DNA from: a virus
Taxonomy: Duplodnaviria; Heunggongvirae; Uroviricota; Caudoviricetes
Length of the DNA stretch: 51,015 nt
IMG/VR virus record: IMGVR_UViG_2721755676_000003
Location: 1 to 51,015 of that record
Direction: 5' to 3' (one strand)
A model generated the notes under the pieces. That model saw nothing but the letters and a program-made list of their open reading frames with translations. It was not told where the DNA came from and did no database searches. Shown here piece by piece: positions 8,577-39,156 of the stretch. Made by a program: the position numbers and the translations under genes. Position 1 is the first letter of the stretch, and the number at the start of each line of letters is the position of its first letter.

Positions 8577-9128
8577 ATGCAAACTGTTTCATTTCAACAG
8601 AGTAGCAGAGCTTCCTCTAATCCACTGATATTCCCATGTCATCAAAGCGAATCTGCAACGCAGGATATTGATCATCGCGATATTTGTTCTGCAGTCCGGG
8701 CGTGGGCAGCGGCAGAAGGGCGCTTAGCTGTTGCGCTTCATATCCAAGAAGCGGCGGAAGAACTTCAACTTGATGGCGTGGATTTCTCAGGCCAGGCAGA
8801 TGTCTGGAACGTGAAGCTGTTCCGTTGGTTGGACAATAAAGACGATTCCGCATCCTACCGTAGAAACGTCGAGCAACTGTTACCCGCGATCATGTCTGTA
8901 TTGCCGCTTCGATACCGCGACCGTGTCGTAAAGAACGACTCGTTTGCTTACCGAATGGCACGGCTGGAAAAAGAGGTTAGTGAGGCGAAGCAAGCGCTGA
9001 TGCTCGATGCACCAAAGAAGGAAAAGCTGAAGGAGTTAGGCGAGGGGATTTTCGAAATGTTCAGAGTCGACCCTGACCTAACGGCGCCTTTACTGGCGAT
9101 GGTCACAACCATGCTGGGGGCAATGTGA
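8577..9128 (+). CDS. YdaT-like protein (cII-position regulator)
   Basis: 183-aa ORF between cro-like and O-like genes; segment QLLPAIMSVLPLRYRDRVV resembles recalled Rac YdaT (LIPAILAILPRELRHRL). Confidence 0.45.
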   Translation: MQTVSFQQSSRASSNPLIFPCHQSESATQDIDHRDICSAVRAWAAAEGRLAVALHIQEAAEELQLDGVDFSGQADVWNVKLFRWLDNKDDSASYRRNVEQLLPAIMSVLPLRYRDRVVKNDSFAYRMARLEKEVSEAKQALMLDAPKKEKLKELGEGIFEMFRVDPDLTAPLLAMVTTMLGAM

Positions 9129-32409: not shown

Positions 32410-32720
32410 TAGCGGTTGCCTCTGCGTTCTATACGCCTGAACCCACAGCGGCAGACCTGGCGCCTTACGGGCTTACGCCTGATGACTATGACGATAAGTT
32501 CGTAGATGTCTGGCCCGATATCTGGCCTTTATTCCTGGTGTTTCAGGCTGTTAGTACGCAGTGGCGCACAGGCATTGGAGGTGCATCAGGGCTTGATTAC
32601 AACGTGCTGCCTTGGGTAATGCGCCTGCACCACGTCGAGGATGAGGCAACCGCGCTTTTGGACATCCGAATCATGGAGAGCGCCGCACTAAAAGTTATGC
32701 ATAAAGAGAGGGCGGAATGA
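32098..32720 (+). CDS. Tail assembly chaperone G-T fusion via programmed -1 frameshift (slip at about 32400-32406)
   Basis: Heptamer A AAA AAC at 32400-32406; the -1 frame stays open to 32720 (...KKLIAVASAFYTPEP...MHKERAE), ending where the tape-measure ATG starts. Confidence 0.6.
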
Positions 32721-35629
32721 GTAACGATATCGCCACGATTTCCCTGCGAGTAAATACCAGTGAGCTGGAGCGTGGTAACCAGGCACTGGATCGCTTTCAG
32801 GAGACCGCGTCCGCTGCGGCAGGTAAAGCGGATGATTTGAACAGTACGTTCCGCACCGGTATCGATAACCAAAAGAAAAACAGAGAAAGTCTCAAGCAAC
32901 AGCGCCAGGAGCTGCAGAACCTGCTGAATAAAATTAGCCCGGTAAACAAGGCGCTGGATGAACTGGACACTATCCAGGAGAGCCTGGCGAAGTTTCGCGG
33001 CAAAGGGCTGGTAGGGGATGAAGACTTTACTCGCTACAACAGCGTGCTTGAGACGACCCGAGTTAAACTGGCGCAGGTCATGGAGTCTGAGACTGCAGAG
33101 GGGCGGGCTCGCATTGAACAGGCACAGGCAGCGCAACGTGCAGCTGCAGCGGGCAAAACCTTTATCGATTCGCTGGAAGAGCAGGTCACAGCAATCGGAA
33201 AAACGCGCGTAGAATTGTTAGAGCTAAAAGCAGCCCAACTTGGCGTGTCCGATCGTGCTGCACCGATGATCGCCCGACTGAAAGAGCAGGAGGACGCGTG
33301 GAAGTCAGGAGCGATCAGCGCGGGGCAATACCGCAACGCGATGCGTTATCTACCAATGCAAATGACCGACATCGTAACTTCATTGGCGTCCGGTATGCCG
33401 GTTTATATGGTAGCCATTCAGCAGGGCGGCCAGCTGCGCGATTCGTTTGGCGGTGTAGGCAATGCTCTGAAAGCGATGTTGTCGATGGTGACTCCTGCCC
33501 GAGTGGCCATTGGTGGCCTGGCCGGTGCTGTTCTGATTGCTGCAAAAGCGGGGGCGGACTACTTTACCGCCTACGACGAAATCAACAAGGCCATTATCAG
33601 GACTGGCAACATTGCCAGCACGTCAGCGCTCCAGATTATGGCTTCCTCCCAGTCTATTGCTGCCTCTACTGGCGCGACTGTAGGAACCGTTCAGAGTTTG
33701 ATGATTGAGCTGGTTGGCATGGGATCGCTGACACAGCAGCAACTTGAAAAAGCAGCGGGCTCCACGGCGCTGGCGGTTCAGACCGGTATAGTCTCGGCGC
33801 AGGACATCACCAAAGCCTATAAGGACATCGAAAAAGACCCAGTTAAAGCGCTGCAAAGTCTCAACGAACAATATAATTTCCTGACCGTTTCACAACTTAA
33901 GCATGTTGACGATCTGATAAAGCAAAAGGACCAGACCGCGGCCGTTACGCAGGCTATGGACCTGTTTGGCGACACAATGGCTGAGCGCGGAGAGCAGGCT
34001 TATGACTCGCTGACACCGTTTGGTCGCCTGTGGCTGGATATCAAAGACTGGGCATCTGAGGCCATGCAGAATATCGGTCAGTGGGTAGCAGAGCTGGCAT
34101 CAAACACACTGAAGGAATTCAACGCAATTTATTACAGCGTAGCGATCGTTTTCCAGAAGCTGAACCAGATCATTTCTTCCTCTATCGCGGCTGCGATTAA
34201 TCTCATTCCTGACTGGGCGAAAACGGATACTTTGCAGGCATGGCAGGACTATAACGAACAAATGGCCGGCGCTTATGGCGACAGCGTCTCTCAGCTGAAA
34301 AAAGACTGGGATGCCGCTGATATCAGTGCAGGTAAATACCTTGATACGGCCAGAAAGATAAGTACCGCAACCACCCAGAAGGATCGTGAAGGGGTCGCTT
34401 CTTTCGGTAAAAAGACTAAAACCGGAAAGCAGGGTACTTTATCGGCTGGCGATCGCAGCACGGATGCTGCCCAGGCCGAGTTGCTGGCGCTTCAGGCTCA
34501 GTTACGCGCGCTGCAGCAGCATAAAGGGCTGAACGACACTATCAGCCAGCAGCGCAAAGATCTGTGGATGACTGAAGCGAAATTTCAGGTGTTGGAGGAG
34601 GCCTCGCGTTCACGTTCACTGACAAAGCAGGAGCAATCCCTGCTGGCGAGTAAAGACCAGGTGCTGCAGTTAGCGCGGCAGAAAGCCCTGTTGGGTGATC
34701 AGATTTCCGCGCAGGAACTGCTGAACAAACGTATGGATACCTCGCAGAAATACGTCACGCAGATGGCTGAGAAACAGGCCGCATTACTGGGTGGCGCAGG
34801 GATGAGTGACCGCCAGGCGCAGCGAGAGCTGGCAAAAAGTCAGCTCGCCGCTGGCTGGAAAAATACGGGTGGTTCGCTGGATGAAGATGGATATCAGAAA
34901 CAGCTTAAGGCAGCTAACGATTACTATGATGCTGAGGATAAGCTACGCGGTGACTGGCTGACCGGCGCGAAAAAGGGCTGGGCTGATTTCGAAGACAGCG
35001 CGACCAATGTGTATTCCCAGGTGCAGACGGTTACCAGCAACGCATTCACCGACATGGCCAGCACCCTGACTGATTTCTTCACAACAGGTAAATCTAACTT
35101 CTCAGATTTCCTTTCCACTTTCCTCAAGGGTATCGCCCAGATGCTGACCCAACTGGCTCTGGTTAATGGAATGAAATCAGCGTTTGGTGGAACCGGTATC
35201 GGCGCGTTCTTTGGTTTTTCAGGTGGTGGTTTGGTCCCTGGTTTTGATGGAGGCGGCTACACGGGAGATGGGGGTAAGCACCAACCCAAAGGAGTGGTAC
35301 ACGGCGGTGAGTTTGTGTTTACGAAGGAAGCGACCCGCGCACTGGGTGTCGGTAATCTGTATGCGCTTATGCGTGGAGCTCAAGGGTATGCAAACGGCGG
35401 TTATGTTGGCCGCGCCCCGATGTATGGGCTGCAATCTTCGACAACTGATGGCGTAACCGTTCAAACGTCCGTGATCGTTCATAACCAGAACACTCAGCAG
35501 CAGGCATATGGTGACAATGACGCTATTTCTCGGGCTTACAAGCAGACCATTGATCAGTCAGTACGCGCAGGTATAGCCAAACAGCTCCAGCCTGGAGGTC
35601 TCATCTGGAATGCAACGAAATCAAGATAA
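32717..35629 (+). CDS. Tail tape measure protein (lambda H-like)
   Basis: 970-aa helical ORF with internal hydrophobic segments, downstream of G/G-T. Confidence 0.85.
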   Translation: MSNDIATISLRVNTSELERGNQALDRFQETASAAAGKADDLNSTFRTGIDNQKKNRESLKQQRQELQNLLNKISPVNKALDELDTIQESLAKFRGKGLVGDEDFTRYNSVLETTRVKLAQVMESETAEGRARIEQAQAAQRAAAAGKTFIDSLEEQVTAIGKTRVELLELKAAQLGVSDRAAPMIARLKEQEDAWKSGAISAGQYRNAMRYLPMQMTDIVTSLASGMPVYMVAIQQGGQLRDSFGGVGNALKAMLSMVTPARVAIGGLAGAVLIAAKAGADYFTAYDEINKAIIRTGNIASTSALQIMASSQSIAASTGATVGTVQSLMIELVGMGSLTQQQLEKAAGSTALAVQTGIVSAQDITKAYKDIEKDPVKALQSLNEQYNFLTVSQLKHVDDLIKQKDQTAAVTQAMDLFGDTMAERGEQAYDSLTPFGRLWLDIKDWASEAMQNIGQWVAELASNTLKEFNAIYYSVAIVFQKLNQIISSSIAAAINLIPDWAKTDTLQAWQDYNEQMAGAYGDSVSQLKKDWDAADISAGKYLDTARKISTATTQKDREGVASFGKKTKTGKQGTLSAGDRSTDAAQAELLALQAQLRALQQHKGLNDTISQQRKDLWMTEAKFQVLEEASRSRSLTKQEQSLLASKDQVLQLARQKALLGDQISAQELLNKRMDTSQKYVTQMAEKQAALLGGAGMSDRQAQRELAKSQLAAGWKNTGGSLDEDGYQKQLKAANDYYDAEDKLRGDWLTGAKKGWADFEDSATNVYSQVQTVTSNAFTDMASTLTDFFTTGKSNFSDFLSTFLKGIAQMLTQLALVNGMKSAFGGTGIGAFFGFSGGGLVPGFDGGGYTGDGGKHQPKGVVHGGEFVFTKEATRALGVGNLYALMRGAQGYANGGYVGRAPMYGLQSSTTDGVTVQTSVIVHNQNTQQQAYGDNDAISRAYKQTIDQSVRAGIAKQLQPGGLIWNATKSR

Positions 35630-35704
35630 AGTGTCTCCGCAGATTTTGCCGTTATGCCAATTCCTGATAGGATTAATCTCAATTTTTACTGATGGAATAG
35701 GGAC

Positions 35705-36508
35705 ATGAAAAAAATTGTAGGTGTGTTATTTCTTTCCTTCTTATTAGCTGGGTGCGATAAACCTAAAATTGACTCATCAACTGATGAAGCAATGAAATCA
35801 TCTATAGCCAAGGTCAGAGAATCACTTCCGGAAAATAAACGGGAGGAATTTGATAGCGCTTTAAAGGTCGTAGCGTTCAGTAACATTAATATGGCTGACC
35901 TAATGCGAGCATCGTCAGAAAGTGACAAAGAAGATCTAAGCAAGAAGATGCGCGAGCCCCTGTCAGGCAAAACTGGAGAGGAAATCATCTCTTATGCTCA
36001 GCAAGTAACTGCCGAGAGGGAACTTAAGCAGAAAGAGCAGGCAATTCAGGAAATCAAAGAGCTTGAACAGAAAAAAGCTGACTCTGAGAAGGCTAAAGAA
36101 GAACTCAAAAAAGTACAGGTTCTATCATCTCGATTTAGCCTGGAACCTGAAGAGTATGGGAAGCCACAACCTATTATTCGCCTTGTTGTGAAAAACAATA
36201 CTGATAAAGCTATTTCCCGTGTGTACTTCAATGGAGTGATAGCCAGCGATGGACGTTCAGTTCCATGGCTGGAAAAAGATTTTAACTACGAAATTGCTGG
36301 CGGGCTTGAACCGGGTGAAGAAGCTACTTGGGCATTGGCTCCGAATAAGTTTTCTGAATGGGGTCAGGTTGATGCTCCAGCTGATGCGGTCTTCACAGTT
36401 ACAGTAACGAGAGTCAATGGGGCAAATAAAGAAGCGATGTTTGATGCTTCCGGCTTTACAGAGCAAGAAAACAGCAGGCTTGAAGATTTAAAGAAAAGAT
36501 ACCTTTGA
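35705..36508 (+). CDS. Lipoprotein of unknown function (moron inserted between tape-measure and M genes)
   Basis: Signal peptide plus lipobox (MKKIVGVLFLSFLLAGC); Lys/Glu-rich coiled region; AT-rich; own terminator. Confidence 0.6.
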   Translation: MKKIVGVLFLSFLLAGCDKPKIDSSTDEAMKSSIAKVRESLPENKREEFDSALKVVAFSNINMADLMRASSESDKEDLSKKMREPLSGKTGEEIISYAQQVTAERELKQKEQAIQEIKELEQKKADSEKAKEELKKVQVLSSRFSLEPEEYGKPQPIIRLVVKNNTDKAISRVYFNGVIASDGRSVPWLEKDFNYEIAGGLEPGEEATWALAPNKFSEWGQVDAPADAVFTVTVTRVNGANKEAMFDASGFTEQENSRLEDLKKRYL

Positions 36509-36526
36509 GCTGACGTATCTACTTAA

Positions 36527-36547
36527 CCCGCTTCGGCGGGTTTTTTT
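36527..36547 (+). terminator. Rho-independent terminator after lipoprotein moron
   Basis: CCCGC-ttcg-GCGGG followed by TTTTTTT. Confidence 0.65.
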
Positions 36548-36562
36548 ATGCCCGGGGGAAAC

Positions 36563-36910
36563 ATGGCGATCGAAATATTTACCTGGCGAACCCAGATTCA
36601 GGCGGGAATGGAAGGGGAGCTTACTTACGCAACACGCTCTGCATCCTTCGGAGACGGATTTGAACAGATCGCCGGTGAAGGCATCAACCCTGAAAAACAG
36701 TCATGGCCGATGACCTTAACAGGGAAAAAAGCTGAGATGCTCGATGCGCTGAGGTTTTGCCGCAAGCACATTACAAAATCCTTTATTTGGACGTCTCCTG
36801 TCGGCGAAACCGGTTTATACCGGATTGAAGCTGATTCCATTAAAGTCCAGCCGCTATCCAGCAAAGTGATGACCATAAAAGCAACCTTCAAACAGGCATA
36901 CGCACCATGA
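36563..36910 (+). CDS. Minor tail protein M (lambda gpM-like)
   Basis: FTWRTQIQAGMEGELTYATRSASFGDGFEQIA resembles recalled lambda M (FRWKVKPGMDVASVPSVRKVRFGDGYSQRA). Confidence 0.8.
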   Translation: MAIEIFTWRTQIQAGMEGELTYATRSASFGDGFEQIAGEGINPEKQSWPMTLTGKKAEMLDALRFCRKHITKSFIWTSPVGETGLYRIEADSIKVQPLSSKVMTIKATFKQAYAP

Positions 36911-38449: not shown

Positions 38450-39127
38450 GTGAGGCGAGTACCAAATACTAGTTCTAACTATATAAATAGTGATGAATAC
38501 AATGATTTATTTCATGATCATATGGACAAGGCTTTAGAGCGAGCTCTTGATACTAGAAAGTTTGAAATTGATCTATATTGGCGTCGCGCCACCTATTTTT
38601 GGACGTTCATAGGTGCTACATTCGGTGGGTTCTTTGTCGCATACGCTTCAACCTCACCTAAAAGGCAAGACTTATTAGTTATTCTTTGTTGTTTGGGGGT
38701 GGCTTTCTCGTTTGCATGGTTTTGTGTTAATAAAGGCAGTAAATACTGGCAAGAGAACTGGGAGAAGCACGTCGATCTTCTTGAAAATAAGTCGATTGGT
38801 CCATTGTATAAAATTGTCCTAACAAGAAATGAAGATATGACACTCCGGCAAAAAGCTTTTGATGTAATAACGGGTCCTGCAGCTTTATCAGTCTCGAAAA
38901 TTAATCAATTGATTAGCCTGTTTGTGTTAATGCTTTGGGTTGTGTTGCTTGTGAATTCCTTACTTCCGTTGGATTTCAACCTTCCATTTAAATGGTTTTA
39001 TATCATTCTTGTATTTACAACTATTCTTTTTTGCGGATTGGTAATGCTGCTAGGACGTACATATCATGGAGGGCATTATCATTTGGCAACGCTGAGGCAA
39101 TCTCGAATAAAACCTGAATCGGAATAG
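38450..39127 (+). CDS. Multi-pass membrane protein of unknown function (moron between K and I; candidate abortive-infection or exclusion effector)
   Basis: AT-rich ORF with several predicted TM helices (YFWTFIGATFGGFFVAYAS; LLVILCCLGVAFSFAWFCV; LISLFVLMLWVVLLV; FYIILVFTTILFCGLVMLL); start uncertain (GTG 38450 or ATG 38522); own terminator. Confidence 0.5.
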   Translation: MRRVPNTSSNYINSDEYNDLFHDHMDKALERALDTRKFEIDLYWRRATYFWTFIGATFGGFFVAYASTSPKRQDLLVILCCLGVAFSFAWFCVNKGSKYWQENWEKHVDLLENKSIGPLYKIVLTRNEDMTLRQKAFDVITGPAALSVSKINQLISLFVLMLWVVLLVNSLLPLDFNLPFKWFYIILVFTTILFCGLVMLLGRTYHGGHYHLATLRQSRIKPESE

Positions 39128-39136
39128 TTAACTACA

Positions 39137-39156
39137 CCCGCTTAGGCGGGTTTTTT
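39137..39156 (+). terminator. Rho-independent terminator after membrane-protein moron
   Basis: CCCGC-ttag-GCGGG followed by TTTTTT; near-identical to the hairpin at 36527. Confidence 0.65.

Follow-up and report, generated by a model that had tools for sequence, protein, structure and literature searches.

A DUF6694-family lipoprotein moron at the H-M junction of a lambda-like tail module, with a possible role against incoming phages

Introduction

Cor (phages phi80, N15 and HK022) and Llp (phage T5) are small outer-membrane lipoproteins that bind FhuA, and their role is superinfection exclusion. In lambdoid phages, morons are units of promoter, gene and terminator with deviating base composition, lying between genes that are adjacent in relatives; in lambda, bor encodes a lipoprotein, and bor and lom both specify outer-membrane proteins implicated in host-cell interactions. 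To our knowledge, neither the junction between tape-measure gene H and minor tail gene M nor any other junction flanking a tape-measure gene is a standard moron position. Morons are described in PMC3594210 as independent transcriptional units spread by horizontal transfer, and the T5 case of Llp is covered in PMC9586334. In Streptococcus thermophilus phage TP-J34, exclusion is exerted by Ltp, a lipoprotein tethered to the membrane; its identified target, according to PMC3952083 citing Bebeacua 2013, is the tape-measure protein. Proteins of the Ltp (and Sie2009) type are presented there as expressed from the prophage on the outer face of the cytoplasmic membrane, where they block genome entry. 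Here we analyze a lipoprotein gene between H and M (positions 35630-36562) in a viral DNA of 51,015 nucleotides (IMG/VR record IMGVR_UViG_2721755676_000003; “the window” hereafter means this whole stretch, and the genes and signals of its H-M region are on the + strand); for the function that we propose, Ltp is the closest model.

The window cassette has the same moron architecture as lambda bor and lom and encodes a protein of a different family, DUF6694. Like Cor and Llp, the protein is the product of a phage-encoded accessory lipoprotein gene; unlike theirs, its family is spread across phyla and outside phages. Ltp differs in its Gram-positive host and its fold and has no detectable sequence relation to the window protein, and the ltp gene lies in the lysogeny module, whereas the window gene adjoins the tape-measure gene. 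The feature is thus an ordinary kind of object, a lipoprotein moron from an uncharacterized family with unusually suggestive genomic behavior. The new findings are the mobility of the one-gene cassette, its position-conserved extended -10 element, the purifying selection on it and its presence in many phyla, together with its adjacency to tape-measure genes in five lineages, its placement at defense loci, the Asp at position +2 of its Enterobacterales members and a structural match to SadB. The best overall explanation, to which we assign a probability of roughly 0.55, is a moron cassette encoding an inner-membrane lipoprotein that gives protection against incoming phages.

Architecture and mobility of the cassette

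The gene at 35705-36508 comprises a 267-aa open reading frame (ORF) plus stop, whose translation begins MKKIVGVLFLSFLLAGC and continues DKPK. A basic n-region and hydrophobic core are followed by the canonical lipobox LLAGC with Cys17 (codon 35753-35755) and Asp18 at +2 (35756-35758), signal peptide residues 1-16 and these two codons together spanning 35705-35758; the precursor would accordingly be a substrate for export and for lipidation at Cys17. GC content is 0.40-0.45 over 35550-36450 versus 0.51-0.56 upstream, about 10 GC points below the flanks, and an intrinsic terminator lies at 36525-36547, with a stem at 36525-36542 (AACCCGCTTCGGCGGGTT; AACCCGC-TTCG-GCGGGTT) followed by a T run. A candidate sigma-70 promoter at 35646-35673 was recognized by eye, with -35 TTGCCG (35646-35651), a 16-nt spacer and an extended -10 TG-A-TAGGAT (TG at 35665-35666, hexamer at 35668-35673). 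The upstream neighbor (32717-35629) is a tape-measure gene of lambda H type (Pfam TMP_2, E = 2e-53; Tape_meas_lam_C, E = 4e-20), and the near-identical upstream protein of viral contig L093 matches the PHROG tape-measure family phrog_24 at E = 7e-250. Downstream, the stretch 36548-36910 holds the junction TGCCCGGGGGAAAC, which carries the ribosome-binding site (RBS) of the next gene, and gene M, encoding a lambda M-type minor tail protein (Pfam Phage_min_tail, E = 1e-25) with a likely true start at ATG 36563. In phages mEp043 and mEp213, H and M abut, the M match overlapping the tape-measure gene; in phage Eeyore the M match likewise overlaps the gene upstream, and in phi80 the H/M junction is contiguous, both phi80 and mEp043 being without the lipoprotein gene. 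Because H and M abut in these relatives, the 933 bp from 35630 to 36562 constitute an insertion. The original prediction had pointed to a signal peptide with lipobox LLAGC, an AT-rich composition, a dedicated terminator and an interrupted H-M junction, and all four readings agree with these results.

We are confident that 35630-36562 is an autonomous moron cassette occupying a cargo slot where H meets M in a lambda-like tail module. The earlier label of lipoprotein moron is upheld by the foreign GC content, the cassette's own terminator and candidate promoter element, the variety of its insertion sites and the presence of other cargo in the same slot of phage phiES15. Among family members, the lipoprotein gene had a lower GC content than its flanks at 118 of 170 loci (median difference -7.5 points), and an extended -10 motif (TGnTAnnnT) occurred in 59 of 124 distinct upstream regions, compared with 1.8% of control windows and 6.9% of shuffles; 43 of these matches lie 36-40 nt before the start codon. 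The cassette promoter would be of the extended -10 type. A hairpin of the same kind follows most phage-borne copies and was present in 47 of 131 distinct downstream regions.

Movement is visible in Enterobacter. By blastn, the transferable segment, spanning 35591-36555, is 86% identical in DNA to Enterobacter quasihormaechei (locus L005, 7886-8851, downstream of prlC), the similarity ending sharply on both sides and the shared segment including both the last ~10 codons of the tape-measure gene (ending IWNATKSR and stop) and the terminator. E. asburiae has at this site a copy whose product shares 44% identity with the window protein, with unrelated DNA beyond it; in E. ludwigii the gene is found at another place, and the opening codons of an M-like gene come after it. 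At about 8805-8870 of locus L092, a scrap of the start of an M-like gene (GTGGCGACAGATATATTCACC) was seen after a chromosomal lipoprotein copy. From their sequences, the Enterobacter chromosomal copies look like leftovers of phage H-lipoprotein-M segments from which the remaining prophage has been lost. Insertion sites vary, from H/M in the window to K/I in Pseudomonas phage PseuP_222, beside an integrase in Marinobacter AS1, and before tail and tape-measure genes in P. aeruginosa phage OQ658367; overall, the cassette shifts between phages, prophage hotspots, defense islands and chromosomal variable regions.

Protein family and conservation

A homology search, proposed as a check alongside the original prediction, placed the protein in the uncharacterized DUF6694 lipoprotein family. 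It matches PF20404 (DUF6694) over residues 4-101 (E = 1.2e-27; 96.7 bits versus a cut-off of 24.3), the sole Pfam match above the curated cut-off, so that no profile similarity of the Ltp type was found, and phrog_7468 over residues 1-267 (E about 5e-112), a PHROG of unknown function. NCBI and UniRef both list an identical sequence as “DUF6694 family lipoprotein”, and its 90% cluster draws most of its members from the Enterobacter cloacae complex. Searches of NCBIfam, BFVD and PDB sequences gave no informative match to the lipoprotein. About 490 cluster representatives match at E ≤ 1e-30, and the best 150 of them are mostly 260-290 aa long and match positions ~1-267. An alignment of 48 members contains 26 invariant positions along the whole length, most of them in the beta-sandwich (P187, W188, F193, Y195, G200, P203, E205, W209, P213, S217, P225 and A228). 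Comparison with relatives gave dN/dS values of 0.02-0.14, indicating strong purifying selection, and these values together with the number of matching representatives establish that this is a real gene.

The family is carried by 121 of about 185,000 species representatives, at 42-57% identity, in Gamma- and Betaproteobacteria, Desulfobacterota, Acidobacteriota, Bacteroidota and Planctomycetota, a patchiness that, together with the high identity, suggests horizontal spread. Among isolated phages, Escherichia phage PHB10 is the closest, and almost all the other carriers are Enterobacter. Complete E. coli RefSeq genomes contained no match to window positions 35500-36700; the exact protein is listed under E. 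coli at NCBI (ANQ00925.1, on a 5.0-Mb contig). Some longer relatives bear extra domains (SH3_3, GmrSD_C, radical SAM). These were rejected as a functional clue since the extras are only sporadic, and some of the fusions are probably merged gene calls. Other relatives (P0121, of 660 aa, P0122, P0128, P0130, P0136 and P0154) have two to three tandem modules of helix plus beta-sandwich behind a single N-terminal domain.

Predicted structure and location

An AlphaFold model computed from the 48-sequence alignment (mean pLDDT 89, pTM 0.69) divides the protein into four parts. The N-terminal four-helix domain (residues 27-86; 35783-35962), the core of the Pfam DUF6694 match, is built from helices 27-40, 43-58, 63-68 and 72-86 at pLDDT 82-93. 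A long Lys/Glu-rich helix follows (residues 91-134; 35975-36106; pLDDT above 90), which would measure ~65 Å if straight and is probably a stalk, leading to a beta-sandwich domain (residues 137-247; 36113-36445) that holds most of the invariant residues and to a C-terminal amphipathic helix (residues 253-266; 36461-36502) with conserved R258, L259, L262 and Y266. Residues 1-16 were modeled at pLDDT below 50. Other members are colinear with this arrangement over their full length. The original prediction of a Lys/Glu-rich coiled segment holds for a long charged helix (Lys and Glu make up 18 of the 37 residues from 100 to 136); for an oligomeric coiled coil, the conservation pattern gives no support: the conserved hydrophobic positions in the alignment columns do not add up to a clean heptad core, and nearly every residue from 102 to 112 is charged.

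Of 255 unique family sequences, 243 have a recognizable lipobox; the 12 exceptions listed all keep Gly-Cys at that place. The +2 residue is Asp in essentially all Enterobacterales copies (motif C-DKP), and in E. coli, Asp at +2 retains a lipoprotein in the inner membrane. The best structural match for the lipoprotein is SadB, the other top matches being Ig-like sandwiches. The predicted layout of helix plus beta-sandwich on an Asp+2 lipid anchor resembles that of SadB at a modest TM-score of 0.25-0.33, and SadB has been experimentally verified as an Asp+2 inner-membrane lipoprotein (PMC3953254). A profile search of PDB sequences at E ≤ 1 did not find the SadB structure 4c47. SadB has no N-terminal four-helix DUF6694 domain, and its gene shares an operon with the adhesin gene sadA, whereas no adhesin gene accompanies DUF6694 genes, no adhesin family being among the 25 most frequent families of 298 neighboring ORFs. 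In the comparison with SadB and YajI, the long DUF6694 helix has a poor heptad pattern, and its trimerization is hypothetical.

Linkage to tape-measure genes and cargo slots

To place the cassette among phages, relatives were located in IMG/VR, where 100 viral contigs carry one and 22 of these have the order H-lipoprotein-M. The tape-measure gene is the immediate neighbor, upstream or downstream, in at least 15 of 30 distinct phage contexts (near-identical contexts were merged, though phylogenetic independence is incomplete, and neighboring genes were called with a crude custom ORF picker). The upstream placement is seen in the window's group and two diverged phages (L141 and L151), the downstream one in several Pseudomonas-type phages, in which the cassette separates the tail chaperone genes from the tape-measure gene. 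The adjoining tape-measure proteins form five groups, which stay apart in clustering at 30% identity over half the protein length.

In Cronobacter phage phiES15 the H-M slot holds a different cargo gene, encoding a zinc-ribbon membrane protein, which indicates that the junction is an exchangeable slot. After this gene (phiES15 gp43, L179 3367-3936) come a terminator and a TTGCCCGGAGGAAAC junction of the kind seen in the window, ahead of M. The same form of junction is found before the next tail gene in Pseudomonas phages. The 3′ junction reads AAACCCGC-loop-GCGGGTTTTTT, then YGCCYGGAGRAAA, then the start of the next tail gene, and it is near-identical in Enterobacter and Pseudomonas phages (window 36525-36562; L025, L030, L035, L079, L132, L142, L148, L161 and L168); the Enterobacter and Pseudomonas lipoproteins that share it are only about 50% identical. 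The junction may be a linker at which cargo is exchanged. We had considered the terminator plus TGCCYGGAGRAAA junction as a cassette-specific 3′ end and dropped this idea because phiES15 has it after unrelated cargo; the combination of terminator and RBS looks like a general feature of the slot or linker.

A second AT-rich moron was observed in the window between K and I (38450-39151; GC 0.37-0.40; own terminator at 39136-39151). Its product is a 225-aa membrane protein (Pfam 8xMP, E = 1.5e-41; UniRef “RipA family octameric membrane protein”), and a literature search found no paper on 8xMP or on RipA in that sense. In the IMG/VR relatives L093-L114, gene I is found at no fewer than five different distances from the lipoprotein gene (+2678, +3244, +3441, +3848 and +4094); close relatives therefore carry nothing or different cargo at K-I.

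Defense-locus placements

Outside tail modules, 12 relatives (from Salmonella, Citrobacter and ten viral contigs) lie in P2-like prophages between the genes for portal gpQ and replication protein gpA, followed by a second, 99-aa lipoprotein gene. This locus is a hotspot of anti-phage systems, including old and tin (PMC9122126), and the twelve occupy exactly that position. P2 cargo differs from the window gene in sitting at gpQ-gpA and not in a lambda-like tail module, and the main text of the hotspot study mentions a lipoprotein 0 times. Alcanivoracaceae have the gene flanked on one side by a divergent brxR (WYL) and on the other by a type I restriction system with RmuC or a BREX operon, the order in Alcanivorax being divergent brxR, lipoprotein gene and hsdR-RmuC-hsdM-hsdS. 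Across Alcanivoracaceae loci L013-L015, L020, L064 and L085-L088, the brxR-lipoprotein pair is constant and the downstream system varies; the 130 nt between the two genes are partly palindromic (ATGACA...TGTCAT, by eye), a possible operator. Another marine lineage has the gene in an island with DUF4145, SymE, ThsB-TIR and SocA genes.

Among 149 immediate neighbors in 80 species, WYL/BrxR was found 9 times, tape-measure 7, BrxA 4, type I methylase 2 and AriA 2, and within ±2 genes BrxB was found 4 times, along with integrases, Methylase_S and Cas1. A second small exported protein is often encoded after the DUF6694 gene, such as a 118-aa lipoprotein in Pseudomonas phage PseuP_222 and a 121-aa secreted protein in Pectobacterium; none of the followers at L172 7988-8287, L011 8920-9219, L003 6818-7174 and L089 9075-9440 has a Pfam family. 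As to known defense lipoproteins, the mEpimmI exclusion lipoproteins were set aside as a lead on account of their being short (PMC11893012), and the lipoprotein defense gene of the Vassallo screen cannot be DUF6694 provided that PADLOC includes it, since the window protein finds no match there.

Proposed function

The exclusion or host-interaction role suggested in the original prediction draws its support from genomic association only. Judged by its genomic company, we hold it somewhat more probable than not that the DUF6694 lipoprotein acts against phages or in exclusion: the association recurs at the P2 hotspot, in islands headed by BrxR, in small defense islands and in prophage slots. In Enterobacterales, the lipoprotein would be held by Asp+2 on the periplasmic face of the inner membrane, presenting into the periplasm its four-helix domain, a charged helical stalk of ~65 Å and the conserved beta-sandwich head. 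Expressed from a prophage or island, the cassette would protect the cell against incoming phages, and the lipoprotein would interfere with the tape-measure or ejection proteins of the infecting phage, or with the passage through the cell wall that these need. Given the predicted inner-membrane tether, the stalk-and-head form and the linkage to tape-measure genes, a periplasmic block of genome entry is the most economical mechanism; by analogy with Ltp it is a tentative one, which we consider possible and rather less than even. Doubtful, though worth stating, is a wider proposition: that DUF6694 proteins are a widespread cross-phylum single-gene envelope defense, spreading as a plug-in cassette, whose membrane-tethered stalk and head intercept in the periplasm the tape-measure/ejection complex or its passage through the wall; if so, the repeated placement next to tape-measure genes would reflect a functional relationship, such as co-inheritance with a tape-measure variant that the lipoprotein recognizes or does not recognize.

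Several observations weigh against a protective inner-membrane lipoprotein. A strict consensus promoter scan reported none, the TTGCCG-16-TGaTAGGAT candidate scoring 8/12, under the scan threshold. Retention in the inner membrane of Enterobacterales is predicted from the E. coli +2 rule only; the +2 residue is Gly in Pseudomonas copies and Ser in marine gammaproteobacteria. Lys at +3 may also weaken retention by Asp+2, a point for which no usable paper was found. The TM-scores with SadB are low (0.25-0.33) and accompanied by no sequence similarity. PADLOC-DB 2.0 gave no significant match, and its marginal matches to LmuB and GajB (E about 1e-3) are at chance level, caused by the charged helix. 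A literature search found no publication on DUF6694, PF20404 or phrog_7468 and no experimental datum on any member. Adjacency to tape-measure genes could reflect insertion points tolerated in the late operon and not function, and many chromosomal neighbors are ordinary metabolic genes, which is to be expected if the cassette can insert at any site. Finally, strong purifying selection and 45-55% identity across phyla would be unusual in an arms race with variable phage proteins, and such conservation fits a conserved cellular target equally well.

Alternative explanations

High conservation and the retention of chromosomal copies favor, as the main rival, an envelope housekeeping or fitness factor carried for the benefit of the host, for instance a SadB-like assembly helper or a cell-wall or stress lipoprotein. 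Cross-phylum conservation under strong purifying selection would be natural for such a protein, as would the SadB-like layout, the copies kept by Enterobacter chromosomes (L005 and L092) after the remaining phage has gone, the C-terminal bacterial SH3 (wall-binding) extension of one relative, the frequent second small exported protein and the metabolic genes among many neighbors. However, the neighbors include no conserved partner such as a trimeric autotransporter, the distribution is patchy (121 of about 185,000 species representatives), and placement at loci of anti-phage cargo (the P2 hotspot and BrxR-headed islands) is repeated. We regard an envelope function as unlikely on balance, though the strongest of the alternatives.

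Considerably less probable is a part in the phage's own lytic cycle, in which a late periplasmic helper, co-expressed with the tape measure, would help to time lysis, disrupt the envelope or shield progeny from debris. The late-operon orientation, the adjoining tape-measure gene in five lineages and the 3′ junction that supplies the RBS of the next tail gene would suit such a helper, but the cassette has a promoter element and terminator of its own, phi80 and mEp043 lack it, phiES15 has another gene in the slot, and the family is found in non-phage islands and chromosomes. An exported lipoprotein, moreover, cannot join tail assembly in the cytoplasm. A weak PHROG match to Rz-like spanins (E = 0.018) covers the signal peptide only, and the protein has no C-terminal membrane segment of the kind found in a unimolecular spanin; a spanin was rejected on both grounds.

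Slightly less credible again is the analogy with Cor and Llp drawn in the original prediction, by which an outer-membrane lipoprotein would bind the phage's own receptor and stop the adsorption of the same or related phages. A phage-borne lipoprotein gene in the tail region resembles those of the small mEpimmI exclusion lipoproteins (PMC11893012), and by the E. coli rule the Ser or Gly at +2 of non-enteric copies would permit sorting to the outer membrane. Nevertheless, no Cor or Llp family was among the Pfam, PHROG or NCBIfam matches, and the protein is roughly four times their size, its mature form having 251 aa in three parts, unlike a small compact plug. Asp+2 is conserved in Enterobacterales copies, the family occurs in phages with unrelated tail tips, in hosts of several phyla and in non-phage defense islands, and low dN/dS with cross-phylum conservation is unexpected for a blocker of one variable receptor. 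Asp+2, size and architecture, conservation and low dN/dS together make a receptor plug unlikely and leave the specific analogy unsupported. A chance ORF or decaying remnant, for which only the lack of a known function speaks, is already refuted by dN/dS of 0.02-0.14, hundreds of full-length homologues with 26 invariant residues and a confident fold.

Implications

Blocks of genome entry at the level of the envelope are far less catalogued in Gram-negative bacteria than cytoplasmic defenses. If protection by the DUF6694 lipoprotein against incoming phages is correct, the cassette would be a compact, portable one-gene resistance determinant with relevance to the failure of phage therapy, already carried by Enterobacter, Salmonella, Klebsiella, Citrobacter, Pectobacterium and Pseudomonas prophages, and it would offer a handle on the poorly understood periplasmic step of DNA delivery by siphophages. 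A domain of unknown function thereby becomes a directly testable candidate. Whatever the lipoprotein does, lambda-like tail modules have exchangeable cargo slots on either side of the tape-measure gene and between K and I.

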